A program made the position numbers and the translations under genes. DNA of 64,000 nt from a virus. Taxonomy: Duplodnaviria > Caudoviricetes. The notes under the pieces were generated by a model. It ran no database searches. It was given only the letters and a program-made list of their open reading frames with translations, and was not told the origin of the DNA. Numbering within the stretch: the first letter of the stretch is position 1; every line of letters begins with the position of its first letter. The stretch lies in IMG/VR virus record IMGVR_UViG_3300042554_001750; one strand, 5' to 3'. Below are positions 23,910 to 37,525 of this stretch, piece by piece.

Positions 23910-24571
23910 TGTTAGAAACTGTTTCTGATTTATTTCAAGAAGCATACAAGCGGAACTGGATTACTGCCCGCGACGGCAACGCCAGTATCCGCTGGCATGA
24001 TAGAAATCATATGTACATCACGCCCAGTGGTATTAGAAAACAATATCTTCAACCAGAAATGTTTAAAAAGATTAAGTTTTCTACGGTTATGAGTGCAGTA
24101 CCTCCATTTCTTACTGATATTTGGGAAGAAATGGAATACACTGATATAAGTAAAAATCTAAAGCCTAGTGGTGAGTTACCAATGCATTTTGCATTGCAAG
24201 GTAAGATTGATACTGAAGTTAGGGTAGTATTGCATTTCCATCCAACATATACTGTAGCAGCCATGCATGCTGGTATACAACTGCCTGACTTGTTAAAAGA
24301 GTTTCCGGAACTAAGTAGGTATACCAGTGTTGCACCCAATGTTCCGTTGCTCCCACCTATTACACAGGATTTGGCTGATGCTTGTGTTAAAAATTTAGAA
24401 TTTGATAAAGCAACAGGTAAAGTTCCCTATAATATTGTGGGAATGGACAGGCATGGAGTGGTGGCAGTTGACACTAGCCCATGGCGTGCATTTGAGCACA
24501 TAGAAAGGCTAGAACATATTTGTAAAATAGTTTTATCAAGTAAAGGATATAAAAATGACAATAACACTTAA
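23909..24571 (+). CDS. Class II aldolase/adducin-family protein
   Basis: DGNAS, ITPSG, KPSGE..MH, VLHFHP, HGVVA metal ligands. Confidence 0.88.
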   Translation: MLETVSDLFQEAYKRNWITARDGNASIRWHDRNHMYITPSGIRKQYLQPEMFKKIKFSTVMSAVPPFLTDIWEEMEYTDISKNLKPSGELPMHFALQGKIDTEVRVVLHFHPTYTVAAMHAGIQLPDLLKEFPELSRYTSVAPNVPLLPPITQDLADACVKNLEFDKATGKVPYNIVGMDRHGVVAVDTSPWRAFEHIERLEHICKIVLSSKGYKNDNNT

Positions 24572-25091
24572 TGGTAATTGGATAGAGCAAGTCAAAGAAT
24601 CTATCCCTGATCATGCAAAAGATATTAGATTGAATTTAGATTCTGCAATCAATCGCAGTCCCCTAGATCCAGTAGATACTCATGCTGTAGCTTATGTGTC
24701 AGCATTGGCAGCAGGCAACGGTGGATTAGCATTTGAGATTGAACACAATAGCCCATTGTTTACCGCAGAAAAAGAGCGCGAAGCTGCAAAGACTGCGGCT
24801 GCATTAATGGGTATGAACAATGTGTATTATCCATTTGTTGAAATGACACAAGATCCTGAACTAAAAGGATTGCCACCTGGTTTAAGAATGCAAGCATACG
24901 CAACACACGGTGGTGTCACCAAGAAGCAATTTGAAATGTACGCATTGGCTGCTAGTATTGTGGGCAAATGCCACTTTTGTGTAAAGAATCATTATGATAC
25001 ACTAAAGAAAGAAGGCATGACTGTACAAGAATTACAACACGTGGGCAAGGTTGCAAGCATTGTTAACAGCATTGGCAAGATTGCAATTTAA
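24555..25091 (+). CDS. ahpD: Alkyl hydroperoxide reductase D
   Basis: PDHAKDIRLNL, MGMNNVYY, EMYALAASIVGKCHFCVKNH. Confidence 0.92.
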   Translation: MTITLNGNWIEQVKESIPDHAKDIRLNLDSAINRSPLDPVDTHAVAYVSALAAGNGGLAFEIEHNSPLFTAEKEREAAKTAAALMGMNNVYYPFVEMTQDPELKGLPPGLRMQAYATHGGVTKKQFEMYALAASIVGKCHFCVKNHYDTLKKEGMTVQELQHVGKVASIVNSIGKIAI

Positions 25092-25103
25092 TTACCCAAA
25101 AAG

Positions 25104-25132
25104 TTGACAACTATTCAAAATACAGTTACACT
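25104..25132 (+). promoter_or_regulatory. sigma70-type promoter at the entrance of the tRNA region
   Basis: TTGACA-17 nt-TACACT; followed by hairpin AAAACACGCA/TGCGTGTTTT and a TAAATA at 25183. Confidence 0.8.
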
Positions 25133-25196
25133 CATAAAAATTGAAAAAACACGCATTATTTGCGTGTTTTGTTAACCAGGAATAAATAAACTTACT

Positions 25197-25331
25197 ATGA
25201 ATAACTTTACTTGTAACATACTGAAACATCAGGCATCATGGTCTATAGCCATGATTACCTTTGCGCCAGTATATCCTACAAGTATCCGTGGCTCAGAGTA
25301 TAATCAAAGAGGGCTCCCGGGGACTAGGTAA
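25197..25331 (+). CDS. Putative attenuator leader peptide (44 aa)
   Basis: MNNFTCNILKHQASWSIAMITFAPVYPTSIRGSEYNQRGLPGTR; stop lies inside a hairpin that competes with the terminator. Confidence 0.6.
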   Translation: MNNFTCNILKHQASWSIAMITFAPVYPTSIRGSEYNQRGLPGTR

Positions 25332-25366
25332 AGTCTAAGTAGTAAAGATTTATCAAGCCCCTGGGA
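25315..25366 (+). promoter_or_regulatory. Putative antiterminator hairpin
   Basis: TCCCGGGG(A)CTAGGTAAAGTCT pairs with AGATTTATCAAG(C)CCCTGGGA, about 19 bp with two mismatches and one bulge. Confidence 0.6.
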
Positions 25367-25398
25367 AACTAAAAAGTCCCAGGGGTTCTTACTTTATT
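25356..25398 (+). terminator. Intrinsic terminator (attenuator)
   Basis: CCCCTGGGA/TCCCAGGGG stem with a 10-nt loop, followed by TTCTTACTTTATTT. Confidence 0.7.
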
Positions 25399-25407
25399 TG
25401 ACAGAAA

Positions 25408-25569
25408 ATGGAAAAACAGATACAGTACGAAAAATTGAAATTTACAGATTGGTCAAGGCATGTGACATTGACACCCGAACAACGAAATAAATTGATTCAG
25501 GAAAAGATTGAACGAGCCAAGATTCAATATCTGGCTACGCAGAAGTTACCTTTAAAAGTAACTCAGTAG
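25408..25569 (+). CDS. Small hypothetical protein (53 aa)
   Basis: MEKQIQYEKLKFTDWSRHVTLTPEQRNKLIQEKIERAKIQYLATQKLPLKVTQ. Confidence 0.5.
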   Translation: MEKQIQYEKLKFTDWSRHVTLTPEQRNKLIQEKIERAKIQYLATQKLPLKVTQ

Positions 25570-25571
25570 CA

Positions 25572-25700
25572 AAGTGTGTGTAGGAAACGTGGTCCTGAGG
25601 CGCACTTAAAACATGTCTTAAACGGGCGGACTGAAGGATGGAGCTTCTCTTGTGAAGCAAAAAATCTCAGGCTAGGGTATAGCTCTAGCATAGCGTAGAA
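25572..25700 (+). ncRNA. Candidate structured RNA of unknown class
   Basis: AAGTGTG/CGCACTT, TAGGA/TCCTG, GCTTC/GAAGC and GCTAGGG/CTCTAGC hairpins; non-coding and GC-richer than flanks. Confidence 0.4.
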
Positions 25701-25702
25701 AT

Positions 25703-25785
25703 ACGCTATTCTATAATACATTGAAGAACAAAGCCCTATACTTTTGATGTATAGAACAGGCATTCAGTGTATTATAGAATAGCGT
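25703..25785 (+). ncRNA. Long-stem structured RNA 1
   Basis: 23-bp stem ACGCTATTCTATAATACATTGAA/TTCAGTGTATTATAGAATAGCGT enclosing a CTATAC/GTATAG hairpin. Confidence 0.6.
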
Positions 25786-25791
25786 TTCAGT

Positions 25792-25866
25792 TGGAGGTTC
25801 GCCAAGTGGTAAGGCCCCGGATTTTGATTCCGGTATGCATAGGTTCGAATCCTATACCTCCTGCCA
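25792..25866 (+). tRNA. tRNA-Gln(TTG)
   Basis: CCGGA-TTTTGAT-TCCGG; TTCGAAT T-loop; CCA encoded; U1:U72 mismatch. Confidence 0.92.
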
Positions 25867-25872
25867 AACATT

Positions 25873-25947
25873 GCCTCATTAGCTCAGTGGTAGAGCAATC
25901 GCTTGATAAGCGATAGGTCCGTGGATCGTTCCCACGATGAGGCACCA
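25873..25947 (+). tRNA. tRNA-Ile(GAT)
   Basis: ATCGC-TTGATAA-GCGAT; CCA. Confidence 0.92.
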
Positions 25948-25952
25948 GTTTT

Positions 25953-26016
25953 AGGATACTAACAGCAAATTTTATACATTAGACTTTTAATCTAAACCGT
26001 AAAAATGTATCCTGTT
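25953..26016 (+). ncRNA. ACAGCAA-family RNA 1 (Lys-UUU anticodon-arm mimic)
   Basis: AGGATAC/GTATCCT stem, TA-ACAGCAA, TTAGA-CTTTTAA-TCTAA hairpin, no T-arm, GTT tail. Confidence 0.65.
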
Positions 26017-26025
26017 ATTTTCAAT

Positions 26026-26101
26026 GGTGCTCTTAGTGTAGTGGTCTGCACACCATGTTGTGACCTTGGTAGTATGAGTTCAATCCTCATAGAGTACCCC
26101 A
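26026..26101 (+). tRNA. tRNA-His(GTG)
   Basis: G-1 encoded, C73; CCATG-TTGTGAC-CTTGG; CCA. Confidence 0.9.
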
Positions 26102-26119
26102 ATTATTAAGGAGATTAAA

Positions 26120-26215
26120 ATGAATTGGGAACAAATGTGCGAGACACACAAAGAAAGTATTCAAGCATGGGATAATCTTTGTGAGGTCTATAGGGGGTGC
26201 CTTTACGCACTCTGA
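26120..26215 (+). CDS. Small hypothetical protein (31 aa)
   Basis: AAGGAG SD; MNWEQMCETHKESIQAWDNLCEVYRGCLYAL. Confidence 0.45.
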   Translation: MNWEQMCETHKESIQAWDNLCEVYRGCLYAL

Positions 26216-26223
26216 GATTATAA

Positions 26224-26300
26224 GCATCCGTAACTCAGTGGATAAGAGTACTGTGCTACGAACGCAGGAGTCGGAGGTTCGAATCCTTCCGGATGCGCCA
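26224..26300 (+). tRNA. tRNA-Arg(ACG)
   Basis: CTGTG-CTACGAA-CGCAG; CCA. Confidence 0.93.
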
Positions 26301-26306
26301 GTTATG

Positions 26307-26381
26307 GCTGATGTAGCGTAGTGGTAGCGCACTATCTTGGTAAGATAGGGGTCATGAGTTCAATCCTCATCATCAGCACCA
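26307..26381 (+). tRNA. tRNA-Thr(GGT)
   Basis: CTATC-TTGGTAA-GATAG; CCA. Confidence 0.93.
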
Positions 26382-26392
26382 ATAAATAAAAC

Positions 26393-27022
26393 ATGCAATC
26401 AGTTCCTAGAATTTCTTTAGCATGTGGACCTGCTGATGATGTTAGAACATTTAATTTGAAATTACCTTTCTTACAAAGAAGAATTGGTGTTCTAGTCAGC
26501 GGCGGATTAGATAGTGCGTTGTTGTATTATTGTTTACGATTAATAGAAAATGAAAACTATACAGTAACGCCTTATACTATCACTAGAAATGATGGTTCTA
26601 GTACACATGCACAACAGGTAATTGATTGTGTGAATAATATTCTTAATAAAAAAACACAGACTACTACAATAGTTACTATATCTGAACAGAATAGCGAATT
26701 ACAAGTTTCTGCAGGTATGAGAGTATTATTCAATACTAATCATAATATATTTTATATTGGATTAATAGAAACATTATCAGAACATGCAATTGGAGTTCCG
26801 AAACCATGGACTCCCGTAGATAGTTTAAGGGTTAATTTTCCCTTTAAGAATTTAAATAAATCACATATTGTTGATTTAATTTATAAATTTGATATTACTG
26901 AATTATTAAACATTACACATAGTTGTGTTTATCCAACAGGTAGATGCAATGTGTGTAATAGATGCAACGAAAGACAATGGGCATTCACTAAATTAGGTTT
27001 AGTGGATCCCGGCACCAGTTAG
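26393..27022 (+). CDS. QueC-like PP-loop ATPase
   Basis: VLVSGGLDS PP-loop; P..NLNKSHIV; THSC...CNVCNRC zinc site. Confidence 0.78.
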   Translation: MQSVPRISLACGPADDVRTFNLKLPFLQRRIGVLVSGGLDSALLYYCLRLIENENYTVTPYTITRNDGSSTHAQQVIDCVNNILNKKTQTTTIVTISEQNSELQVSAGMRVLFNTNHNIFYIGLIETLSEHAIGVPKPWTPVDSLRVNFPFKNLNKSHIVDLIYKFDITELLNITHSCVYPTGRCNVCNRCNERQWAFTKLGLVDPGTS

Positions 27023-27086
27023 GGATACTTACAGAAAATACTAACCAAACGATAGGTCGTTGGGTCAATCCCACTACTGGACACCA
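27021..27086 (+). pseudogene. Chimeric remnant: 5' end of an ACAGCAA-type RNA fused to a tRNA 3' half
   Basis: GGATAC-TT-ACAGAAA, then a T-arm-like hairpin and ACTGGAC-ACCA with no matching 5' acceptor strand. Confidence 0.5.
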
Positions 27087-27102
27087 ACAGAAAGGAAATA
27101 TC

Positions 27103-27351
<249 letters not shown>

Positions 27352-27353
27352 AT

Positions 27354-27382
27354 TTGACATAAATTATATTTTGTGTTACACT
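27354..27382 (+). promoter_or_regulatory. sigma70-type promoter
   Basis: TTGACA-17-TACACT immediately before tRNA-Arg(TCG). Confidence 0.75.
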
Positions 27383-27383
27383 A

Positions 27384-27459
27384 GGGACATTAACTCAGTG
27401 GACAGAGTGCTTGGCTTCGAACCAAGTGGTCAGGGGTTCGAATCCTCTATGTCCCTCCA
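27384..27459 (+). tRNA. tRNA-Arg(TCG)
   Basis: CTTGG-CTTCGAA-CCAAG; CCA. Confidence 0.93.
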
Positions 27460-27508
27460 GTAAGGCTCTAAATAAATGTAGACAGGCATAAAGAAAGCGA
27501 GGTTTATA

Positions 27509-28069
27509 ATGGCTGTTCTAGCACTAGATATAAGTGGAGTTCCCCGGCAATGGATCTCTTACGATGATGCAATTACTTACCAAGCTAAAAATGCTGTGGC
27601 ATGGTCTATGGGAGAAGTTGTTGCAAGATATCGCGGTGGAATCCAGAATGACGGCACATTGAGTTATCTGGAAACGCCTAGTATCATTGCCATTAAGGGT
27701 CATGGATTTGATCCGTATAAGCATGCACAAGTCGCATTAAGTAACAGAACATTGTTTGGTCGTGACCGACATGTATGTGCATATTGCGGTGGGCATTTTG
27801 CTAACTATCATTATCTAAGCCGTGATCACATTCTGCCTAAGAGCCGTGGTGGTGAAAACACTTGGATGAATGTTGTTACCGCATGTAAAGAATGTAATGG
27901 AAAGAAAGGTAATAAGACGCTTAAGGAAGCCCGTATGGAACTTCTATACGCACCTTATGTGCCTAATCACTTTGAAAACATGATTCTACAGAATCGCAAT
28001 ATTATTGCAGATCAGATGGAGTATCTATTGACAGGTGTTCCTAAGCATAGTAGAATTTTGAAAAATTAG
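27509..28069 (+). CDS. HNH endonuclease
   Basis: RDRHVCAYCG, RDHILPKSRGG.NTW.NVVTACKECNGKK. Confidence 0.92.
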   Translation: MAVLALDISGVPRQWISYDDAITYQAKNAVAWSMGEVVARYRGGIQNDGTLSYLETPSIIAIKGHGFDPYKHAQVALSNRTLFGRDRHVCAYCGGHFANYHYLSRDHILPKSRGGENTWMNVVTACKECNGKKGNKTLKEARMELLYAPYVPNHFENMILQNRNIIADQMEYLLTGVPKHSRILKN

Positions 28070-28081
28070 GATAACATGGGG

Positions 28082-28111
28082 TTGACAAAAAAATCAACTC
28101 TATGTTATACT
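28082..28111 (+). promoter_or_regulatory. sigma70-type promoter
   Basis: TTGACA-18-TATACT. Confidence 0.6.
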
Positions 28112-28127
28112 TAATAAATATTGAGAA

Positions 28128-28201
28128 GCCCTTGTAGTATATTGGTATTACAATTGCCTTGTAAGCATTAGAAGATGGTTCGATTCCATACTGGGGCACC
28201 A
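28128..28201 (+). tRNA. tRNA-Thr(TGT), several stem mismatches
   Basis: ATTGC-CTTGTAA-GCATT; CCA. Confidence 0.82.
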
Positions 28202-28207
28202 AACAAT

Positions 28208-28282
28208 TCCAGATTAGCTCAGAGGTAGAGCAGTTGACTGTTAATCAATTGGTCCCTGGTTCGATCCCAGGATCTGGAGCCA
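28208..28282 (+). tRNA. tRNA-Asn(GTT)
   Basis: GTTGA-CTGTTAA-TCAAT; CCA. Confidence 0.94.
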
Positions 28283-28296
28283 AATAATTTAATTGT

Positions 28297-28503
28297 ATGC
28301 TATTCAACGAACACGAAACATTTCAGTACCATTGCGATATAAACAAATATTGTATTAGTGGTATTGATTATTATGATGTACATTTTTACACAGTATATTT
28401 GGATGCTAAAAATCCAAATGAAAAGCATACAAAATTAAGAATGAATTTAACTCAATCTGAATTTAGTTCATTCTGTAAAATTTTTAAAAATTATCAGGAG
28501 TAG
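28297..28503 (+). CDS. Hypothetical protein
   Basis: 68-aa ORF directly before the SpeD-like gene. Confidence 0.6.
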   Translation: MLFNEHETFQYHCDINKYCISGIDYYDVHFYTVYLDAKNPNEKHTKLRMNLTQSEFSSFCKIFKNYQE

Positions 28504-28504
28504 T

Positions 28505-28867
28505 ATGTCACATTGGGGTTATCATTTAATGCTTGATTGCAGTGGATGCAATACAGGTATCGCTAGTAAAGACACAATCTATAATTTTGTCAAAGATTTA
28601 GTTAAGCGTATAGATATGGTTTCACACGGTGAACCTATTATTGAATATTTGTTACCCGGAGATCCTAAACAAGGATATAGTCTATTACAATTGATTACTA
28701 CTTCCAACATTAGTGCTCATTTTATGGAATTGGATGGCACTGCATATTTTGATATTTTTAGTTGTAAACCTTTTGACATTGAAACTGCAAAAAATATAGT
28801 TTCAGAATATTTTAGTCCAAAAAAAATGAGAGTAAACTTTATTACTCGCCACGCCGATATAGATTGA
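28505..28867 (+). CDS. speD: S-adenosylmethionine decarboxylase-like proenzyme (pyruvoyl)
   Basis: WGYHLMLDCSGC, GYS..QLITTSNISAHF, YFDIFSCKPFD. Confidence 0.85.
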   Translation: MSHWGYHLMLDCSGCNTGIASKDTIYNFVKDLVKRIDMVSHGEPIIEYLLPGDPKQGYSLLQLITTSNISAHFMELDGTAYFDIFSCKPFDIETAKNIVSEYFSPKKMRVNFITRHADID

Positions 28868-28901
28868 CTAATAATCACTAGTGTAGTAAAGTACACACTT
28901 A

Positions 28902-28979
28902 CTGGCGTTAGCTCAGTTGGATAGTAGCAACAGCCTTCTAAGCTGTAGGTCAGGGGTTCGAATCCCTTACGCCAGGCCA
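28902..28979 (+). tRNA. tRNA-Arg(TCT)
   Basis: ACAGC-CTTCTAA-GCTGT; CCA. Confidence 0.93.
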
Positions 28980-28985
28980 AATAAT

Positions 28986-29059
28986 ATCTCCTTAGTGTAA
29001 CGGCAGCATACGGGTCTCCAAAACCCTTGGTGGGAGTTCGAATCTCTCAGGGGATGCCA
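28986..29059 (+). tRNA. tRNA-Trp(CCA)
   Basis: CGGGT-CTCCAAA-ACCCT; CCA. Confidence 0.9.
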
Positions 29060-29090
29060 AGAAAAGGTAAACAAAATTTTTAAAAAATGT

Positions 29091-29151
29091 TTGACAATAA
29101 ATCAGAACTGTTATATACTAGCATCTGTTGATTGATTAATGTTCTTTAAAA
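29091..29151 (+). promoter_or_regulatory. sigma70 promoter with boxA-like site
   Basis: TTGACA-17-TATACT (29091-29119); TGTTCTTTAAAA (29140-29151). Confidence 0.75.
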
Positions 29152-29167
29152 GTTAAGTAAGTTTTTT

Positions 29168-29193
29168 GCCCGGGTGGTGAAATAGGTAGACAC
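29168..29193 (+). pseudogene. 5' fragment of a tRNA-Leu gene
   Basis: GCCCGGG-TG-GTGAAATAGGTAGACAC (acceptor 5' strand and D-arm) stops abruptly before the HNH gene. Confidence 0.7.
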
Positions 29194-29244
29194 TATAATA
29201 ATTACTTTCTTTGTGTTTAGTATAAATACATTAAGGAGATTATT

Positions 29245-29703
29245 ATGATTGTTTTGACTGAATACATCAAACGGGACAGAAGTGTGCGTAGGGCACATTT
29301 GGATTTGTCTGAGTCATGCCTTGAAAGAGGCGGAAATTCTACTAATCATAAAGGTGTTCTCGCACAATTTTTAAATACAGATATTCCTTCTGGTAGAATT
29401 TTGCTTTGCCATGCTTGTCATAATGGAAAATGCTCAAACCCCAAACATTTGTATTGGGGAACGGACCGTGATAATCTTGAAGATGCTAAAGAAAATGGGA
29501 CTCATAAAAGTCCTTGGGATAACCTTGTTGAAAAACATGGTTATGAAAAAGCATGTCAGATAAACAGTATCAAAATGCAAAATAACACTAATGGCTCAGG
29601 AAATGCAGGTAAATCTAAATCAGAGGAACACAAGAAAAATATTTCACTAAACCGCAAGGGTGGTAAACCTAAAGGTTGGCGAAAAAACAAATCTAGTGTA
29701 TAA
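29245..29703 (+). mobile_element. His-Me finger (HNH-type) homing endonuclease with NUMOD3-like tail
   Basis: CHACHNGKCSNPKHLYWGT..DN; KSEEHKKNIS; late promoter TATAAATA at 29221. Confidence 0.82.
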
Positions 29704-29714
29704 TAAAGTTTGTT

Positions 29715-29799
29715 GCGAGTGTGACGTAAGTGGTAGCCGTAGGAGACTTAAAATCTCCCGCCGTTAGGCGTGCCGGTTCGAGTCCGGCCACTCGCACCA
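29715..29799 (+). tRNA. tRNA-Leu(TAA)
   Basis: GGAGA-CTTAAAA-TCTCC; long variable arm; CCA. Confidence 0.94.
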
Positions 29800-29919
29800 T
29801 ATTGAAGCACATTGTAAGCCATTGCCGATGATCAAGGCAGCGTAGGGTGGCAGAAAGTAGATAATCGGCCGATACAGCTACTGAACCGCCTAGATAGTAT
29901 AGTGTGTTTCAATATGGTG
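29795..29919 (+). ncRNA. Long-stem structured RNA 2 (overlaps the tRNA-Leu ACCA)
   Basis: 19-bp CACCATATTGAAGCACATT/AGTGTGTTTCAATATGGTG enclosing TGCC/GGCA and a multi-segment TAGGGTGG...CCGCCTA arm. Confidence 0.65.
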
Positions 29920-29924
29920 ATTTA

Positions 29925-30001
29925 GGGCCTATAGCACAATTGGTTAGTGCAAACGACTCATAATCGTTAGGTTACAGGTTCGAGTCCTGTTGGGCCCACC
30001 A
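29925..30001 (+). tRNA. tRNA(CAT), probably Ile2
   Basis: AACGA-CTCATAA-TCGTT; GGGCCTA acceptor typical of Ile2; CCA. Confidence 0.85.
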
Positions 30002-30010
30002 TTTAATTTT

Positions 30011-30102
30011 GGAGCGTTGACCGAGAGGCTGAAGGTAGCGGTTTGCTAAACCGTCCACGTACTAAAATACGTGCATAGGTTCGAATCCTATACGCTCCGC
30101 CA
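30011..30102 (+). tRNA. tRNA-Ser(GCT)
   Basis: GCGGT-TTGCTAA-ACCGT; long variable arm; G73; CCA. Confidence 0.94.
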
Positions 30103-30113
30103 AAGGACATAAT

Positions 30114-30476
30114 ATGCACTTTACTATTCCTGAAGAATATATTACTGATGTTACAGTTAGGCATGAATACGATTATGTTAAAGATCGTAACAATCCTACA
30201 CATGAAGACCTTATCAAAATCCTTAAGGGATATGATAAAGGATATAGTATCAGTAGCAAAGACCACGATGAGTTTACTAAATTGCGTAACCAACTTGAAA
30301 GTGAAGGTTACATTAAGTGTGAGCGTGGTTGGTGGAATGGTGATCGTGTATTAAAGCCGTTCTATTTGAATGAATGGAAGTTTAAAAAGAATCATAAGTT
30401 TCCTTGCGCGGCAGCAATGCGTACAGGTATTGACTGTGCTAGGAAATTTGGATGGAAAAGTATTTCAAGTTTATAA
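30114..30476 (+). CDS. Hypothetical protein
   Basis: AAGGA SD; 120-aa ORF. Confidence 0.72.
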   Translation: MHFTIPEEYITDVTVRHEYDYVKDRNNPTHEDLIKILKGYDKGYSISSKDHDEFTKLRNQLESEGYIKCERGWWNGDRVLKPFYLNEWKFKKNHKFPCAAAMRTGIDCARKFGWKSISSL

Positions 30477-30489
30477 CAGAAAGGTAAAA

Positions 30490-30663
30490 ATGAAACCTAC
30501 TTCAACTTTTAAATTGCCCAAGTCTACTAAGATGTTACTAGATAATATCTTGGATCCGCATCTCCGCGGATCAATGCGTAGAGATTATATTAAGGCAATT
30601 TTAGAAAATCAAGTAAAAGCGAAATCTAATAAAAAGGATCGCAATCAAACTAACGATGAATAA
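30490..30663 (+). CDS. Small basic hypothetical protein
   Basis: AAGG SD before ATG 30490; MKPTSTFKLPKSTK. Confidence 0.6.
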   Translation: MKPTSTFKLPKSTKMLLDNILDPHLRGSMRRDYIKAILENQVKAKSNKKDRNQTNDE

Positions 30664-30668
30664 TTAAT

Positions 30669-30753
30669 GTATCGGTGGCAGAGTGGTTGAATGCAACGGA
30701 TTGCAAATCCGTACCGTATAGGCGCGTCGGTTCGAATCCGACCCGATACTCCA
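30669..30753 (+). tRNA. tRNA-Cys(GCA) with class II (long variable arm) scaffold
   Basis: ACGGA-TTGCAAA-TCCGT; 13-nt variable region ACCGTATAGGCGC; U73; CCA. Confidence 0.85.
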
Positions 30754-30758
30754 TTAAT

Positions 30759-30848
30759 GGAAGCGTGGTAGAGCGGTTGAATACACTGGTCTTGAAAACC
30801 AGCGAACATGAAAGTGTTCCGTGAGTTCGAATCTCACCGCTTCCGCCA
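30759..30848 (+). tRNA. tRNA-Ser(TGA)
   Basis: CTGGT-CTTGAAA-ACCAG; long variable arm; CCA. Confidence 0.94.
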
Positions 30849-30863
30849 ACAAAGGAGTCTAAT

Positions 30864-31442
30864 ATGCCCAGCGTGTTTTTAGTAAGTGATACTCACTTCG
30901 GTCACGCCGGAGTGTGTAGATTTTTGCGTGATGATGGAACCAAACTGCGTCCCTGGGATGACCCCAATGAAATGGACGAAGAAATGGTCAAGCGTTGGAA
31001 CGAAAGAGTAAAGCCTAACGATAAAGTTTATCATTTAGGTGATGTAGTAATTAATCGTAAAGCACTGAACATCCTTCGTAGATTGAACGGGGATAAGGTG
31101 CTTATCAAAGGTAACCACGATATTTTTAAGTTGGAAGATTATACTGACCACTTTAGAGATATTCGTGGCTATCATGTTATGAACGGTATGATTTTAAGTC
31201 ATATCCCTGTCCATGAAGAAAGTTTGGGCCGTTTTGGTGTAAACATTCACGGACATCTTCATGCAAACCGCGTTGTCAAAATCAAGCACAAGGGTGCTAC
31301 ACCTGAAGTTGATCACAGATATCATTGTGTTTGTGTGGAACAAACTGATTTTGCACCTATCTTATTTGAGGATGTGTTAAAGCGAATCAAAGAAGAAGGT
31401 GGCGAAGTTGGCTTTAAAAATGGTAATGGTGTTGTTATGTAA
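30864..31442 (+). CDS. Calcineurin-like metallophosphoesterase
   Basis: SDTHFGH, HLGD, GNHD, SHIP, HGHLH. Confidence 0.92.
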   Translation: MPSVFLVSDTHFGHAGVCRFLRDDGTKLRPWDDPNEMDEEMVKRWNERVKPNDKVYHLGDVVINRKALNILRRLNGDKVLIKGNHDIFKLEDYTDHFRDIRGYHVMNGMILSHIPVHEESLGRFGVNIHGHLHANRVVKIKHKGATPEVDHRYHCVCVEQTDFAPILFEDVLKRIKEEGGEVGFKNGNGVVM

Positions 31443-31458
31443 CTTTACCCAAAATTAC

Positions 31459-31487
31459 TTGTCAACAAGTGACTTTGGTGACATAAT
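31459..31487 (+). promoter_or_regulatory. sigma70-type promoter of the ACAGCAA-RNA/DUF2828 unit
   Basis: TTGTCA-17-CATAAT. Confidence 0.6.
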
Positions 31488-31511
31488 AACATCATTGAGT
31501 TAGAGATTATA

Positions 31512-31668
31512 AGGATCGGTACAGCAACATTTACTTTATAGTGAATGGTCTGGGCATAGTATGGTACATGCTGGAGGGACAACCCGTTGAAGGTGTGTAT
31601 TGAAATACTCCGGACGAACTCAGAGTGATGGCCTGAGTATAATAAAAGCAGTCAACAACGATCCTGTT
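31512..31668 (+). ncRNA. ACAGCAA-family RNA 2
   Basis: AGGATCG/CGATCCT stem, GT-ACAGCAA, CATTTAC/GTGAATG, GTCTGG/CCGGAC and ACTCAG/CTGAGT helices, GTT tail. Confidence 0.7.
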
Positions 31669-31676
31669 ATTTTGTT

Positions 31677-31872
31677 AGGATGATGACAGCAATCTAAAAC
31701 AATACTGCCTTGTTTTAGGGAAACCTAAACAGCCTGTTGGGGTTAGCCAACTTTGTGTCTAGTCAAGATACTAGGATCGGTCATGTACGATACATGATAG
31801 GCTTGTGGTACAAACTCCCTTAGTGGTAGGGGGCAAGCAGAAATATAAAATACCCGTATCGGTCATCCTGTT
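31677..31872 (+). ncRNA. ACAGCAA-family RNA 3
   Basis: AGGATGA/TCATCCT stem, TG-ACAGCAA, 10-bp TCTAAAACAA/TTGTTTTAGG, GTTGG/CCAAC, CTAGT/ACTAG, TCATGTA/TACATGA and CTCCCT/AGGGGG hairpins, GTT tail. Confidence 0.7.
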
Positions 31873-31880
31873 AGAATTAG

Positions 31881-31936
31881 TGAATGCTAACAGCAACTTT
31901 TTATTCAAACTTGAAAATTGAAATAAAACGCATTCA
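31881..31936 (+). ncRNA. ACAGCAA-family RNA 4 (abuts the DUF2828 RBS)
   Basis: TGAATGC/GCATTCA stem, TA-ACAGCAA, TTCAA/TTGAA hairpin around CTTGAAA. Confidence 0.65.
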
Positions 31937-31950
31937 GAAAGGAAAATGAA

Positions 31951-33366
31951 ATGAACGCATTTGTAAACGCAGTAGCGAACCAAGAAGCCCGTACCCAAAA
32001 TGGTATGAAGGCTCGTAAGTCTAGTGCTAACGCACTGGTTGATCTGTTCTATAACATCGGTGCAAGCCGTGGTAAGAACATTGTACCTGCTTTTACCTCT
32101 GCCTATGTCCAAGATAAGGACTTGGCATTGCGTATCGCATTGTGGGCCCGCGATGCCCGTAGTGGAGCAGGCGAACGTCAATTGTTCCGTGATATCTTGA
32201 CTCATTTGGAAAAGACTGATCCCGATGCGGCAGTCCGTCTGTTGAACAAGGTACCTGAACTTGGTCGTTTTGATGACTTGTTTGTTTTCAAGTCAAAGGA
32301 CATGAAGGCTAAGGCTTACACTCTGTTGGGTGATAACCTTCGTGTTAAGAATGGTCTTGCGGCTAAGTGGACTCCTCGTAAGGGCCCTGTTGCCCGCGAA
32401 ATCCGTGAGTTCTTCGGCATGAGTCCTAAGAACTACCGTAAGACTTTGGTCTCTATGACCAATGTCGTTGAATCACAAATGTGTGCCAACGACTGGGACA
32501 ACATCAACTTCAGCCATGTTCCCTCACAGGCTGCACGAATCTACAAGAAGGCGTTCAACCGTCATTCTGTTAAGTTCGCAGAGTATGTACAGAAGTTGGT
32601 TAGTGGAGATAAGACTGTCAAGGTTAACGCCGGCGCGATCTATCCTCATGATGTCCTGAAGGGTGTGATCAATGCATATGGTCGTGCGTCTTATGACAAG
32701 ACCGAGTTGGATCACATTGTTGCGCAATGGGATGCATTGCCTAACTATGTTGGTGATGCTAACATCATGCCGCTTGTTGACGTTAGTGGTTCTATGACTT
32801 GCCCTGCAGGTAAGAACACTAACGTTCGTTGCTTGGATGTTTCAGTCTCATTGGGATTGTACTTGGCTGATAAGAACAAGGGTGCGTTCCACGGAACCTT
32901 CTTGACTTTCAGCGAAAAGCCTGAATTGATGACCCTAAAGGGTAACATCGTTCAAAAGGCTGATCAAATGATCAAGTCAACTTGGGGCATGAGTACCAAT
33001 CTACATGCGGCTTTTGACAAGATCCTTAGCACCGCAGTTAAGAATTCTGTTCCTAACAGCGATATGCCAAAGATGTTGTTGATCCTTAGCGATATGCAGT
33101 TCAACCAATGCGTCCGTCATGATGACTCAGCAATGGAAATGATTGAACGCAAGTATCGTGACGCAGGCTACGAAATGCCAGCAGTGGTTTTTTGGAACTT
33201 GAACAGTAGCGACAACGTTCCTGTCAAGTCAGACAAGAGTGGTGCGGCACTTGTGTCAGGGTTCAGCCCAAGCATCATGACTAGTCTGTTGTCAGCAGAC
33301 CCGCTGGAATTCACTCCAGAAGGTATGATGATGAAGACCATCATGGCAGATCGTTACGATTGCTAA
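31951..33366 (+). CDS. DUF2828-type protein (helical TROVE-like N-terminus and vWA C-terminus; Ro60-like layout)
   Basis: DLFY, RDARSGAGER..FR, PELGRFDDL, AAKWTPR, VPS.A, DVSGSM MIDAS, GMSTNL, SDMQF, VFWNL. Confidence 0.82.
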   Translation: MNAFVNAVANQEARTQNGMKARKSSANALVDLFYNIGASRGKNIVPAFTSAYVQDKDLALRIALWARDARSGAGERQLFRDILTHLEKTDPDAAVRLLNKVPELGRFDDLFVFKSKDMKAKAYTLLGDNLRVKNGLAAKWTPRKGPVAREIREFFGMSPKNYRKTLVSMTNVVESQMCANDWDNINFSHVPSQAARIYKKAFNRHSVKFAEYVQKLVSGDKTVKVNAGAIYPHDVLKGVINAYGRASYDKTELDHIVAQWDALPNYVGDANIMPLVDVSGSMTCPAGKNTNVRCLDVSVSLGLYLADKNKGAFHGTFLTFSEKPELMTLKGNIVQKADQMIKSTWGMSTNLHAAFDKILSTAVKNSVPNSDMPKMLLILSDMQFNQCVRHDDSAMEMIERKYRDAGYEMPAVVFWNLNSSDNVPVKSDKSGAALVSGFSPSIMTSLLSADPLEFTPEGMMMKTIMADRYDC

Positions 33367-33375
33367 TGGACTATA

Positions 33376-33409
33376 AAGTTATATCGGATTAATCCGATAT
33401 AACTTTTCT
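33376..33409 (+). terminator. Terminator after DUF2828
   Basis: Perfect 13-bp AAGTTATATCGGA/TCCGATATAACTT followed by TTCT. Confidence 0.7.
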
Positions 33410-33426
33410 AGGAGTTATAATTTAAA

Positions 33427-34032
33427 ATGTTTGAAAAATTACAATTAATAAATCCTCATCCTAGCACAGAGTCTATATATGTAGGTGATATTCCTGCTGA
33501 AATTTTTTCAGAAATACAAACTAAGGTCAGTAAACTTCAAAAAAATTTTTTTGCAGTGTCTAAACTAACTTCTATGAATAAAAGTTTAGTTGGTCAAATA
33601 GAAAACTCGGTAAGAATGACTCCTCTACCTAGTTTAGAATCTTTCTTAAAAAACTTCTTTAAAGAAAATATATCAACTAAAGACATTGAAATTCATAGTA
33701 ATTGGGTAAACTTTCAAAAGAAAACAGAATACAATCCCAATCATACTCATACCGGTGACTGGGCATATGTGATATGGGTTAAAATACCCTTTTCATTTAA
33801 TGAAGAGGACATAGCACCCAATTCTATTCATTCAAGCACGAAAACTAATGGAAGATTTGAATTATCCTACATAAATGAAAATCTAGAAGTTACTTCAAAA
33901 AAGCTTGAAGTTGATTCAAAATTTGAAGGAAAATTTATTTTATTCAGATCCAATACACGGCATTGTGTATATCCATTCTATACCTCAGATGACTATAGAA
34001 TTTCTATGGCAGGAAATATTATATTTGTATAA
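33427..34032 (+). CDS. Putative 2OG-Fe(II) oxygenase
   Basis: WVNFQ...YNPNHTH, YVIW, ILFRS...HCVYPF, RISMAGNI. Confidence 0.78.
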   Translation: MFEKLQLINPHPSTESIYVGDIPAEIFSEIQTKVSKLQKNFFAVSKLTSMNKSLVGQIENSVRMTPLPSLESFLKNFFKENISTKDIEIHSNWVNFQKKTEYNPNHTHTGDWAYVIWVKIPFSFNEEDIAPNSIHSSTKTNGRFELSYINENLEVTSKKLEVDSKFEGKFILFRSNTRHCVYPFYTSDDYRISMAGNIIFV

Positions 34033-34040
34033 ATAAAATT

Positions 34041-34315
34041 GCAACTAGGTAAGTGTATAACGACACTTTAAACAAGATTGTGGACGCACATGATTCGGCC
34101 TAGTTCAACGATCACTCGGCTTACACTTTGCCGTAATCAAAAGTGGGTAGGCAGTTACCATATCTGCCGGGTACGCACGAACTTGACCTTAAGGCCCGCG
34201 ATGTATGGGCGACTTAAAAATATCGTGGGGCAGAACTTGACTGTCCATATGGAGACAAGTAGGACGGAACCTTACACCCATGTCGGGGCTTGGTAGTGCG
34301 AGTAGCCGACATTCT
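34041..34315 (+). ncRNA. Candidate structured RNA (~270 nt) after a late promoter
   Basis: TATAAATA at 34028; AACTAGG/CCTAGTT, AAGTGT/ACACTT, CACTTT/AAAGTG, GGCAG/CTGCC, CCGCGATGT/ATATCGTGG, GGGCAG/CTGTCC and ATGTCGG/CCGACAT helices. Confidence 0.55.
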
Positions 34316-34317
34316 TC

Positions 34318-34384
34318 TTGACAATAATTCCTACTTAGTATATAATAAGTGCATACGCTGAGAAATCGGCAATGCTCTTTAACA
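34318..34384 (+). promoter_or_regulatory. sigma70 promoter with boxB-like hairpin and rrn-consensus boxA
   Basis: TTGACA-17-TATAAT; GCTGA-GAAA-TCGGC (34357-34370); TGCTCTTTAACA (34373-34384). Confidence 0.85.
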
Positions 34385-34401
34385 GTTTATTGGTTTTATT
34401 T

Positions 34402-34478
34402 GGGACGTTAGCTCAGTTGGTAGCAGCACTCGGCTTTTAACCGATAGGTCATTGGTTCGAACCCAATACGTCCTACCA
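34402..34478 (+). tRNA. tRNA-Lys(TTT)
   Basis: CTCGG-CTTTTAA-CCGAT; CCA. Confidence 0.92.
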
Positions 34479-34587
34479 TATTAAAACACATTCAAGGCAA
34501 AGTACAAGCCTGGCAGAAGGTGCAGCCTTGCCCCGTATGGAGCAATGGTGGACGGTGCTACTCCGTCGAGTGTGTTTTAATATGGTA
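34474..34587 (+). ncRNA. Long-stem structured RNA 3 (overlaps the tRNA-Lys ACCA)
   Basis: TACCATATTAAAACACATTC/GAGTGTGTTTTAATATGGTA enclosing CAAGGC/GCCTTG and GACGG/CCGTC. Confidence 0.65.
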
Positions 34588-34592
34588 TCTTT

Positions 34593-34668
34593 GCTCGGTT
34601 CGTCTATCGGTTTAGGACGCTAGCCTTTCACGCTGGAAAGACGGGTTCGATTCCCGTACCGAGTACCA
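34593..34668 (+). tRNA. tRNA-Glu(TTC)
   Basis: CTAGC-CTTTCAC-GCTGG; CCA. Confidence 0.93.
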
Positions 34669-34682
34669 GTATTAAATACAGT

Positions 34683-34877
34683 ATGATTGTTGAAACCGTT
34701 AAAACTTATACTCATTGGGCCCGTGATAATATTGTTACCAAACAATATGTCACCGAAGTGGACAATAGCAATAAAAGAGTTTTAACAGTTATTGAAAATT
34801 CTTACATGCCCTACAGTATCAGAGGTGAGTTGCAAAAAGAAGATACTAAAGGTAAACATATTGATGTAAAAGTTTAA
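34683..34877 (+). CDS. Small hypothetical protein
   Basis: ATG 4 nt after TAAATA; no SD. Confidence 0.6.
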   Translation: MIVETVKTYTHWARDNIVTKQYVTEVDNSNKRVLTVIENSYMPYSIRGELQKEDTKGKHIDVKV

Positions 34878-34880
34878 AAC

Positions 34881-34965
34881 GGAGATGAAGCATCAATGGT
34901 GATGCAGTGGACTGTAAATCCGCCGCCTTATGGCACGACTGGTTCGATCCCAGTAATCTCCACCA
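34881..34965 (+). tRNA. tRNA-Tyr(GTA)
   Basis: GTGGA-CTGTAAA-TCCGC; variable arm; CCA. Confidence 0.93.
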
Positions 34966-34972
34966 AGATATT

Positions 34973-35049
34973 GCACCGTTAGATCAGTTGGTTAGATCGC
35001 ATGCCTGTCACGCATGAGGCCAGGGGTTCAAGTCCCCTACGGTGCGCCA
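34973..35049 (+). tRNA. tRNA-Asp(GTC)
   Basis: CATGC-CTGTCAC-GCATG; G73; CCA. Confidence 0.94.
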
Positions 35050-35053
35050 AATT

Positions 35054-35130
35054 GGTCGGGTATCTTAAGAGGAAGTAGAGCCTCCCTCATAAGGAGGAAT
35101 GTGGGATTTCGAGCGTCCCCCTGACCACCA
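35054..35130 (+). tRNA. tRNA(CAT), probably elongator Met, atypical D-arm
   Basis: CCTCC-CTCATAA-GGAGG; GGGAT-TTCGAGC-GTCCC; CCA. Confidence 0.8.
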
Positions 35131-35145
35131 GATAAATAATTTTGT

Positions 35146-35222
35146 GCGGGTATAGTGTTTAACGGTAGCACGGCAGCCTTCCAAGCTTTAAGAGAGGAGT
35201 TCGAATCTCCCTACCCGCTCCA
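35146..35222 (+). tRNA. tRNA-Gly(TCC)
   Basis: CTTCCAA loop; U73; CCA. Confidence 0.9.
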
Positions 35223-35223
35223 G

Positions 35224-35271
35224 TTGACAATATGTATGAAATCAAATATACTTCATACTTGTTCTTTAAGA
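35224..35271 (+). promoter_or_regulatory. sigma70 promoter with boxA-like site
   Basis: TTGACA-17-TATACT; TGTTCTTTAAGA (35260-35271). Confidence 0.7.
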
Positions 35272-35284
35272 TAAATAGTTTTTT

Positions 35285-35369
35285 GCCCTGGTGGTGTAAT
35301 TGGTAGCCACGCTGGTCTTAGAAGCCAGTGCTTAATCGCGTGTCGGTTCGAGTCCGACCTAGGGCACCA
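35285..35369 (+). tRNA. tRNA-Leu(TAG)
   Basis: CTGGT-CTTAGAA-GCCAG; variable arm; CCA. Confidence 0.94.
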
Positions 35370-35412
35370 CAATTTATTGGGAAATCACTTGCCTAGAGGA
35401 ATAAATACTTAT

Positions 35413-35967
35413 ATGAAAAGAGTTTATATAAGTGATATGCCCTGGGAAGAAATACAAAGGCACTACAACGAAGGAATGTCTTTGCGTGATTTACAGAAAA
35501 AGTTCAGAATTAGTTTTAAAACTTTTCAAAAAGCAAAAAAATTGAACTTATTTGTGCCTAGAGATTTATCATCAGCAATGAAAATAACTTTGATGATTAA
35601 CCCTAGAAATTACTCACATATAAGAAAGAACAGGTCAGCACTTAAAAATTATAGGGCTGATTGTACTTTTAAGTTTAACTTGTCAGATTATCCTGACGAA
35701 TTCAATTTTGAATTGATTGAAAGCTATGGTTGGTATAAACCCAAAAATAGGGGCGATAATATCAATGGTGTTAGCAGAGACCATGCAGTAAGTGTAAAAT
35801 ACGGGTTCGACAACAATTTACCTGCTGAACATTTGGCTCACCCTGCTAATTGTGTTTTAATGAGACACGGTGATAATGTGTCTAAATATAGCAAGATATC
35901 AATGTCTTATGAAGAATTGCTCAAACGCATTGAAGCATGGGACCAGAAATATGGGGGATTGGTATAG
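35413..35967 (+). mobile_element. HNH-type endonuclease with N-terminal HTH
   Basis: GMSLRDLQKKF HTH; SRDHAVS...HPANCVLM.H.DN; ATG 5 nt after TAAATA; stop inside tRNA-Ala. Confidence 0.75.
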
Positions 35968-36027
35968 TTGGGAACACGATGCCCTTGCAAGGCATAGTCA
36001 GCGGTTCGACCCCGCTATCCTCCACCA
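35953..36027 (+). tRNA. tRNA-Ala(TGC)
   Basis: ATGCC-CTTGCAA-GGCAT; G3:U70; CCA. Confidence 0.93.
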
Positions 36028-36033
36028 ATCAAT

Positions 36034-36109
36034 TGCGGCCGAGGGAGACAGTAACCCGCCAGTCTCATAAGCTGGAGATACCTGGTGCGACTCCAGGGGT
36101 TCGCAACCA
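36034..36109 (+). tRNA. tRNA(CAT), initiator-like but atypical
   Basis: TGCGGCC acceptor with one bulged nt on the 3' strand; CCAGT-CTCATAA-GCTGG; TGCGACT T-loop; CCA. Confidence 0.7.
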
Positions 36110-36152
36110 ATTAATATTTTTATTCTATATCTTATAGATAAGTAAGTTTACT

Positions 36153-36228
36153 CTCGGATTAGTATAGCCTGGTAGTATCCGTGCTTTGGGAGCATGTGGC
36201 GGGGGTTCAAATCCCTCATCCGAGACCA
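36153..36228 (+). tRNA. tRNA-Pro(TGG)
   Basis: CGTGC-TTTGGGA-GCATG; CCA. Confidence 0.93.
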
Positions 36229-36245
36229 TTTAAATTGAGGAAAAT

Positions 36246-36377
36246 ATGGCAGCAAAAAGTGAACAAAGAAAGAGTGTTGTAAAGCGTACTAGTCAAGGCG
36301 GTAGTAGCCCCAAGACCAGTTCAATGAATAAAACTGAAAAGCGTAGTTTCAAAAAGAATAGAGGACAAGGCAAATGA
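36246..36377 (+). CDS. Small basic protein (43 aa)
   Basis: GAGGA SD; MAAKSEQRKSVVKRTSQGG...KKNRGQGK. Confidence 0.6.
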   Translation: MAAKSEQRKSVVKRTSQGGSSPKTSSMNKTEKRSFKKNRGQGK

Positions 36378-36550
36378 GTGGCAAAGGTAGTAGTCCAAGA
36401 CCTTTTAGTGTGTCTCAAGAAGAATACGCAAATCGCTGGGACGCTATCTTTGGACGAGATTTAACTGATGATCTTAAAGTTAAGGAAGATGAACAAGCAT
36501 TGGACGAAGCTTTTGATCAAATAGAAACAGAGCAAGAAATTCGTAAATGA
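36374..36550 (+). CDS. Small acidic protein (58 aa)
   Basis: ATGA overlap; MSGKGSSPRPFSVSQEEYANRWDAIFG. Confidence 0.65.
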   Translation: MSGKGSSPRPFSVSQEEYANRWDAIFGRDLTDDLKVKEDEQALDEAFDQIETEQEIRK

Positions 36551-36556
36551 AATATT

Positions 36557-36632
36557 GGATCGTTAGCTCAGTTGGTAGAGCGGCGCCCTTACAAGGCGTA
36601 GGTCGGCGGTTCGAACCCGTCACGATCCACCA
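36557..36632 (+). tRNA. tRNA-Val(TAC)
   Basis: GCGCC-CTTACAA-GGCGT; CCA. Confidence 0.94.
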
Positions 36633-36647
36633 ATAATAAATAATGTT

Positions 36648-36797
36648 ATGAAATTGTTTGAGGCAACAATAAGAGTTAATGGTAAAGAGTTTAAAGATAG
36701 AGTCGGCGCAAACAACGCTGAAGAAGCTAAACTCTTACTGCAACAACGACATGGTCCAAGAGCCGTTCCTTATTTGCCAAAAATGATTCCAAGTTAA
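36648..36797 (+). CDS. Small hypothetical protein (49 aa)
   Basis: ATG 5 nt after TAAATA; MKLFEATIRVNGKEFKDRVG. Confidence 0.55.
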   Translation: MKLFEATIRVNGKEFKDRVGANNAEEAKLLLQQRHGPRAVPYLPKMIPS

Positions 36798-36798
36798 T

Positions 36799-36872: not shown

Positions 36873-36874
36873 AA

Positions 36875-37456: not shown

Positions 37457-37525
37457 AATCTTACTTAGTCATAATTTTGTAACAATTTTTTTATATACTC
37501 TGTATAAATAATCGTAGAGGATATC

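Follow-up and report, generated by a model that had tools for sequence, protein, structure and literature searches.

The DNA analysed here, called the window, is the 64,000-nucleotide (nt) stretch of the IMG/VR virus record IMGVR_UViG_3300042554_001750 (Duplodnaviria; Caudoviricetes), from a lake phage. Between 25.8 and 36.9 kilobases (kb) it holds a plus-strand array of 26 transfer RNA (tRNA) genes called by ARAGORN, to which Rfam adds two weaker tRNA-like matches. All three RNA elements described below belong to this array, and apart from their closing stems no stem in the 64 kb reaches 20 pairs. This closing stem, referred to as the clamp, recurs in many uncultured phages around very diverse inserts, and its inner part resembles the sites that are processed by ribonuclease III (RNase III).

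Long-stem elements in the tRNA array

Element 1 (29796-29918, plus strand, 123 nt) has its 5' arm at 29796-29813 (extending to 29816) and its 3' arm at 29901-29918 (starting from 29898), around an insert of about 85 nt with two or three hairpins. The scan gave it arms of 22 nt (29795-29816 and 29898-29919) which are 86% complementary by Watson-Crick pairs and which pair at all positions when G-U is allowed. Element 2 (34475-34586, plus strand, 112 nt) consists of a 5' arm at 34475-34492, an insert with four small hairpins and a 3' arm at 34569-34586; in the scan its arms (34474-34493 and 34568-34587) are 20 nt long and 95% complementary. The arms common to both elements are ACCAUAUUR AAR CACAUU / AGUGUGUUUY AAUAUGGU, and a search of the window for the 18-nt arm pattern with up to 3 mismatches returned 4 matches, namely the four arms of these two elements, against 0.67 expected. 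The inserts of elements 1 and 2 belong to different insert families. The preliminary description, made from the DNA letters alone, had placed nearly identical stems at 29795-29919 and 34474-34587 around unrelated, structured inserts, and the inverted-repeat scan, the folding and the insert families all agree with it.

The same description had counted a third copy of the stem at 25703-25785, which holds in part. Element 3 (25703-25785, plus strand) has a stem of 23-25 base pairs (bp) around a 37-nt insert, with scan arms of 23 nt (25703-25725 and 25763-25785) that are 96% complementary. What it has in common with elements 1 and 2 is the inner core only, AAUACAUU/AGUGUAUU (ACAUU/AGUGU), including a U-G wobble followed by U-A; its outer stem is different, and it agrees with the consensus arm at 10 of 18 positions. 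Judged by its sequence, element 3 is a sister subfamily and no true copy of the stem of elements 1 and 2. All three elements fold with energies far below those of shuffled controls (z = -5.8, -6.1 and -9.4), and none of 200 shuffles folded as well. A heptamer, AUAGCGU, is found both just 5' of element 3 and at the end of its 3' arm (25684-25709 and 25779-25785), and the ACGCUAU at the start of the 5' arm may pair with either copy, giving an alternative pairing. The upstream copy and the small hairpin that precedes it are also kept in another phage locus (L178).

The position of the elements relative to the tRNAs is very regular. The ARAGORN coordinates bear out that the stems of elements 1 and 2 start inside the terminal ACCA of tRNA-Leu(UAA) and tRNA-Lys(UUU), respectively, and that a tRNA follows each element. 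The ACCA of tRNA-Leu(UAA) (29715-29799, plus strand) occupies 29796-29799 and that of tRNA-Lys(UUU) (34402-34478, plus strand) occupies 34475-34478; in both cases these four nucleotides form the first four pairs of the stem. The next tRNA begins 6 nt 3' of the element in all three cases: tRNA-Met (29925-30001) after element 1, tRNA-Glu (34593-34668) after element 2 and tRNA-Gln (25792-25866), which is the first tRNA of the array, after element 3, all on the plus strand. A perfect match to the sigma-70-type consensus (TTGACA-17-TATAAT; 34318-34346, plus strand) lies 5' of tRNA-Lys, element 2 and tRNA-Glu, and a promoter-like site with 11 of 12 consensus positions (29091-29119, plus strand) lies 5' of an endonuclease open reading frame (ORF), tRNA-Leu and element 1; both sites are known as consensus matches only. 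Sigma-70-like promoters thus precede the units, and therefore the elements would be inside the tRNA transcripts. A pairing between leaders and trailers, with each tRNA as the insert of a clamp, was also considered and it fails, judged by eye, for tRNA-Leu and tRNA-Lys of the window.

Distribution of the clamp

Element statistics were drawn from the IMG/VR matches listed, and consequently the totals are lower bounds. Confinement of the stem to this DNA had been set beforehand as the outcome that would count against the proposal, and this is clearly not what was observed: the exact 18-nt arm is present in at least 119 IMG/VR stretches, and in 139 of 144 arm occurrences among the matches listed the partner arm is located at most 500 nt away. 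When 3 mismatches per arm are allowed, at least 297 elements are found in at least 134 IMG/VR loci, with 1-10 elements per locus. Among the carriers are T4-like phages, known by the genes for RegA, clamp loader, RNase H, dCMP deaminase and Hsp20 beside the elements, and two complete genomes, one of 98 kb with terminal repeats and one of 400 kb from a jumbo phage. In each genome there are 1-4 copies, grouped within a few kb.

The searches of other collections gave a different picture. In 596 gigabases of bacterial and archaeal genomes there are 69 matches to the pattern (16 fixed and 2 two-fold positions), which is about the number expected by chance, and none of the 69 has a partner arm. The clamp arms were found in no cultured phage record searched, and no close relative of the window was found among cultured phages. 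Rfam, at gathering and at permissive thresholds (E up to 5, positions 24500-37500), gave tRNAs and noise only, the weak mir-148 match being an effect of the hairpin. No description of the stem was found in Rfam or in the literature searched. A catalogue of 8,495 candidate RNAs from IMG/VR may hold some of the inserts, and the shared stem is not described there (PMC10690425). Neither Rfam nor the papers searched yielded a description of one almost invariant frame of RNase III type that is joined to the ends of tRNAs and holds more than 100 insert families of uncultured phages.

Selection acts on the RNA

Selection works at the RNA level. Among the elements of at most 160 nt (n = 241), the tRNA strand pairs better than the other strand in 188, the other strand pairs better in 11 and there are 42 ties. 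On the tRNA strand G-U pairs are much more frequent than A-C pairs (311 vs 53), and position 9 of the stem covaries (G-C 133, A-U 26, A-C 29, G-U 1; Fisher p = 1e-15). The strand bias, the excess of G-U and the covariation of position 9 argue against an inverted repeat acting at the DNA level.

An unbiased sample was also obtained from the tRNA arrays of 80 loci which were fetched via the DUF2828 protein and not via the motif. Stems of 18-29 bp are common beside the tRNAs of this sample; their outer part varies and covaries (ACCAUAUA..., ACCAUAAG..., ACCAUUAA...), and they are most constant in the inner AACACAUU/AGUGUGUU. The U-G/U-A step is present in 50 of 103 distinct long stems on the sense strand and in 16 of 85 on the antisense strand, and CAUU/AGUG in 27 of 103 and 0 of 85, respectively. 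When present, the step is located 18-22 bp from the outer end of the stem.

Inserts and their modularity

The inserts are as diverse as the frame is uniform. Among the matches listed, 202 distinct elements of at most 160 nt were grouped into 138 insert families; 35 of these families have at least two members, and 21 of the 35 are found in two or more upstream contexts. Conversely, 22 different insert families were found directly 3' of tRNA-Lys(UUU) and 6 between the pair tRNA-Lys/tRNA-Met. A homolog of element 3 in L178 (about 6774-6855) shares its stem and upstream flank and holds a different insert.

The relatives of the element 1 insert keep their hairpins with 9 pairs changed on both sides (in an alignment of only 4 sequences), and those of the element 2 insert (L122, L031, L136, L103) do so with 8 pairs changed on both sides (only 5 sequences). 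Because hairpins are kept by compensatory change, the inserts look like real, exchangeable structured RNAs and not like filler. Neither ARAGORN nor Rfam calls any insert a tRNA, so that the elements are structured non-tRNA RNAs inside a phage tRNA array and on the strand of the tRNAs.

The clamp as a putative RNase III site

A bacterial RNase III site of E. coli type needs approximately two helical turns (roughly 20-22 bp) at the cut and no fewer than 11 bp from there to the end of the helix. The stems of the elements have 20-25 bp: on the insert side of the predicted cut there are 10 bp plus 1-4 further pairs, and on the other side 8 bp plus an abutting helix. This helix abuts the 5' side of the stem. 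In 98 of 202 elements it is an upstream tRNA's acceptor stem; among those that have no upstream tRNA, 64 of 103 show a local hairpin ending exactly at the stem, compared with 27% of random windows. On the 3' side, the last GGU of the 3' arm constitutes the first three nucleotides of the next tRNA in 30 elements. In several loci (L081, L102, L107, L096) a recurring mini-hairpin, GCCAG-CAACA-CUGGC (or GCCGGAUUUUGUAACCGGC), ends where the ACCA of the clamp begins; it is found within 50 nt upstream of elements lacking an upstream tRNA and sits where the acceptor stem stands elsewhere.

The determinants of the Escherichia coli enzyme lie within an 11-bp helix made up of a distal box with U-A (position 1) and U-G (position 2), a 2-bp middle box and a proximal box (pb) with G-C at pb1, A-U or U-A at pb2, A-U at pb3 and A-U or U-A at pb4, beside the scissile bond (PMC1540722). 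In this enzyme G-C or C-G at pb2 blocks binding, whereas at pb4 it makes catalysis 7- to 14-fold slower and leaves binding unharmed (PMC1540722). The R1.1 site taken from the T7 record is CAAGGUCAUU[CGCAAG]AGUGGCCUUU or, with the cut marked, CAAGGUCAUU[CGCAAG]AGUGGCCUUUAU^G, and the phage stem, RAARCACAUU[insert]AGUGUGUUUYAA^UAUGGU, can be aligned to it. The four loop-side pairs (C-G, A-U, U-G and U-A) are identical in both, as are the A-U pairs at pb2 and pb3, and pb1 has a 5' G in 58% of copies. This region, RAARCACAUU/AGUGUGUUUY, is the most conserved part of the stem. The U-G/U-A step of the distal box is present in the three elements of the window and in 149 of 203 elements of the motif set. 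At pb2, neither G-C nor C-G was found in 45 unbiased stems or in 149 stems of the motif set; pb3 is A-U in 137 of the latter. Non-canonical pairs cluster at pb4 (35 of 202, against 5 or fewer at neighbouring positions), which is the same place where R1.1 has its natural C-U mismatch.

A search of five large records, of which two are complete, revealed no RNase III encoded by the phage, and the enzyme would accordingly come from the host. E. coli RNase III takes part in the maturation of phage T4 tRNAs (PMC4810235).

Several points weigh against cleavage of the clamp by RNase III. The pair at pb1 is A-U or G-U more often than G-C, the partner being U more often than C, and pb4 is G-C in about two thirds of the copies. 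The helix is A/U-rich throughout in a genome with 40% G+C, which makes the missing G-C at pb2 weak evidence, and about half of the long stems of the unbiased sample lack the U-G/U-A step. The 18 conserved positions exceed what RNase III alone needs, and part of them may reflect horizontal spread or another binding partner. Besides, the cleavage is predicted by applying the rules of E. coli to uncultured phages, and distal-box preferences may differ between bacteria according to Pertzev and Nicholson 2006 (PMC1540722).

Taking these points into account, we give slightly better than even credence to the clamp being a processing site for host RNase III within the transcript of the tRNA operon, from which the insert would be released as a small RNA. 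RNase III as the enzyme, the positions of the cuts and the accumulation of the insert are inferred from sequence. Each element would then be an RNA cassette of the tRNA operon whose closing stem of 18-25 bp serves as the RNase III site. The inner 10 bp (5'-RAARCACAUU / AGUGUGUUUY-3') would carry the recognition, with the U-A/U-G distal box by the insert, C-G/A-U in the middle and an A/U-rich proximal box, and the outer 8 bp (ACCAUAUU/AAUAUGGU) would supply the rest of the approximately two helical turns needed by the enzyme. These outer 8 bp are by themselves too short for a second half-site; stacking is probable, on the upstream tRNA's acceptor stem or, where this tRNA is absent, on the mini-hairpin. 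A staggered cut at 10 bp from the distal box is predicted, ACCAUAUU^RAAR in the 5' arm and ...UUUYAA^UAUGGU in the 3' arm. By analogy with R1.1 it would fall at 29803^29804 and 29912^29913 in element 1, at 34482^34483 and 34580^34581 in element 2, and at 25712^25713 and 25777^25778 in element 3.

After such a cut tRNA-Leu and tRNA-Lys would be left with a 4-nt trailer, UAUU, to be trimmed back to CCA by exonucleases, and the downstream tRNAs would keep a short leader for RNase P (in the case of tRNA-Met, the remnant of the 3' arm plus the 6-nt spacer). The insert would be freed as a small RNA whose closing stem has 10 bp and a 3' overhang of 2 nt, and the inserts would be independent, exchangeable structured RNAs. 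Since the predicted cut leaves a 4-nt trailer on the upstream tRNA, maturation of the tRNA 3' end would be part of the same event. Of the two functions that had been proposed at the outset, a carrier or processing stem of RNase III type gains support from at least 138 insert families in one stem and from a core that matches both the determinants of RNase III and R1.1. As for a switch controlling the 3' maturation of the upstream tRNA, nothing points to a reversible switch, and 3' maturation itself is retained as a consequence of the predicted cut.

A broader possibility, which we consider doubtful, is that the clamp is a universal frame for the expression and processing of a large hidden set of phage small RNAs, which would move from one tRNA array to another by recombination at the common 18-bp arms, in the manner of gene cassettes in integrons. 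The sample already shows more than 130 insert families. According to this proposal many of the inserts would act in trans, for example as mimics of tRNAs, decoys or inhibitors of host defences directed at tRNAs, rather than serve as spacer filler.

Alternative explanations

The stem could be a dock for a specific protein other than RNase III, from phage or host, in the fashion of Y RNA and Ro60, with the inserts as effector modules of a ribonucleoprotein; we regard this as rather unlikely. The local candidate is a Ro60-like DUF2828/DUF7788 protein whose gene (31951-33366) is placed between the elements. As in Y RNAs, including the bacterial and phage YrlA bound by Ro60/Rsr, a conserved closing stem encloses variable interiors, there are several paralogs per genome and a Ro60-like gene is present in the array; some inserts of other phages have T-arm-like hairpins, and the 18 positions are more conserved than simple recognition of double-stranded RNA requires. 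However, the DUF7788 match is absent from both complete stem-bearing genomes (400 kb, and 98 kb with terminal repeats) and present in only 1 of 10 large records, so the DUF2828 protein is probably not the partner of the clamp. The consensus element occurs in only 18 of 80 DUF2828 loci, the DUF2828 gene in only 11 of 119 motif loci among the matches listed, and no protein family in more than 28 of these 119 loci when all ORFs are clustered. Unlike Y RNAs, the elements gave no match to the Y RNA or YrlA families of Rfam even at E up to 5 across 24500-37500, and another conserved RNA type, with a short stem and the motif ACAGCAA, lies directly 5' of the DUF2828 gene of the window and is better placed as its partner. 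After these co-occurrence tests the Ro60/Y-RNA explanation was dropped as the principal one.

It is unlikely, in our opinion, that the clamp is merely a stable structure with no dedicated enzyme, which would shield the insert and the tRNA ends from exonucleases and keep the neighbouring tRNAs folding independently, its uniform sequence being due to recombination or horizontal exchange of cassettes. The stems are certainly very stable, the elements occur in very different phages (the 98-kb genome, T4-like phages and the 400-kb jumbo phage), and recombination between shared 18-bp arms could produce the observed pattern of one insert behind different tRNAs and one site with different inserts. Nevertheless, a CCA locked in an 18-bp helix would make the upstream tRNA unusable unless the stem is cut, and the rules are specific to each position (U-G is always at position 17; G-U is tolerated at position 12 and not at 9, where A-C is tolerated), which points to recognition rather than to stability alone. 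Much more improbable is that the arms are terminal inverted repeats of a mobile DNA element resembling a miniature inverted-repeat transposable element, or sites of recombination at the DNA level. Inverted repeats around variable DNA, the spread over unrelated phages and the homing endonuclease genes nearby would fit such an origin, but the bias towards the tRNA strand (188 to 11) and the ratio of G-U to A-C (311 to 53), relevant only in RNA, do not. Moreover, the elements are found only in tRNA operons and in sense orientation, their flanks have no visible target-site duplication, interiors within one 'family' are unrelated, and the bacterial genomes searched lack them.

With regard to the neighbouring proteins, a search of PDB sequences with the DUF2828 protein gave no match. 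The commonest neighbour of the clamp is a YkuK-type RNase H-like protein (PF04308, about 156 amino acids), encoded in 28 of 119 motif loci (e.g. L083:3557-4027, minus strand) and also at G009:C1:7283-7714. It was rejected as a general partner because it is absent from one complete genome and from the window.

The second RNA type of the window is found at 31488-31940 and 25948-26022 and has a short stem with ACAGCAA after its 5' strand and UGUUA after its 3' strand. Its units are GGAUCGGU-ACAGCAA...GAUCC-UGUUA, GGAUGAUG-ACAGCAA...CAUCC-UGUUA and GGAUAC-UAACAGCAA...GUAUCC-UGUUA. Two or three of them are located directly 5' of the DUF2828+DUF7788 gene, and all three regions are kept in other DUF2828 loci. 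From this arrangement it is the ACAGCAA RNAs, and not the long clamps, that seem to be partners of the DUF2828+DUF7788 protein.

Comparison with known systems

The nearest functional analogues of the clamp are the early RNase III sites of T7 and the processing stalks of ribosomal RNA (rRNA), whereas the nearest in kind are the stable RNAs of T4 and T5. As in the E. coli RNase III sites (T7 R1.1 and R0.3-R18.5, and the stalks of the rRNA operon), the stem is formed by sequences that flank the released RNA. The likeness to R1.1 extends to the loop-side run of C-G, A-U, U-G and U-A, to A-U at pb2 and pb3 and to a place prone to mismatch by the predicted scissile bond. On the other hand, the clamp differs from the T7 and rRNA sites in that it is located within tRNA arrays, has its first 4 bp in common with the CCA end of a tRNA, and is near-invariant over hundreds of uncultured phages, in which one frame serves for more than 100 inserts. 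It is also a continuous helix of 18-25 bp with none of the internal loops of T7 type, its pb1 and pb4 are off the E. coli optimum, and its cut is predicted from sequence.

Small stable RNAs, such as species 1 and 2 of T4 and the RNAs of T5, have been on record from phage tRNA clusters since the 1970s. Like T4 rnaC and rnaD (species 1 and 2) and T5 RNAI, RNAIII, RNAIV, RNA1, RNA2 and RNA2H, the elements are RNAs of about 100-170 nt between tRNA genes of the same strand, with a terminal stem around internal hairpins, some of which are T-arm-like. The T4 and T5 RNAs have each their own short stem and no common one, unlike the clamp elements, and no sequence relation to the clamp was found in T4 rnaC/rnaD, in the region 5' of T4 tRNA-Gln or in the T5 stable RNAs. 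T5 RNAIII (L271 4285-4390, minus strand), with a 12-bp closing stem, a 2-nt 3' overhang and three internal hairpins, resembles the mature RNA predicted for the clamp; its 3' end abuts tRNA-His, so that this end would be a product of RNase P and not of RNase III.

Many uncultured lake phages thus carry such small RNAs inside a common double-stranded frame similar to an RNase III site. The 18-nt arms are a simple sequence handle for collecting hundreds of unannotated families of structured RNA, and the clamp gives a testable model in which a single transcript is cut into tRNAs and small RNAs. It also suggests a natural, portable cassette with which defined small RNAs could be expressed in bacteria. 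What the inserts do is the interesting part of the finding: if it is true that they act on host defences or translation, they would represent a sizeable new class of phage RNA effectors.

Other features of the tRNA array

The region 29168-29703 contains a 5' fragment of a tRNA-Leu gene (GCCCGGGUGGUGAAAUAGGUAGACAC), a promoter-like site and an ORF of 152 amino acids with a weak match to His-Me endonucleases, followed by the intact tRNA-Leu(UAA) with element 1. In sequence terms this looks like the insertion of a homing endonuclease into the tRNA array. Two Rfam tRNA matches (36 and 31 bits) which ARAGORN did not call, together with a stretch resembling a tRNA fragment, are located at 34881-34962, 36035-36105 and 26999-27095, and they may be degenerate or non-canonical tRNA-like genes.

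Finally, between a gene for a 2-oxoglutarate/Fe(II) (2OG-Fe(II)) oxygenase and the promoter of tRNA-Lys there are about 280 noncoding nucleotides of higher G+C (34036-34320), without any match in Rfam. This region has relatives with 93% identity in two loci (L001 and L002), and parts of it are found with 69-83% identity in five more (L010, L155, L183, L012 and L199); it is probably another structured RNA.

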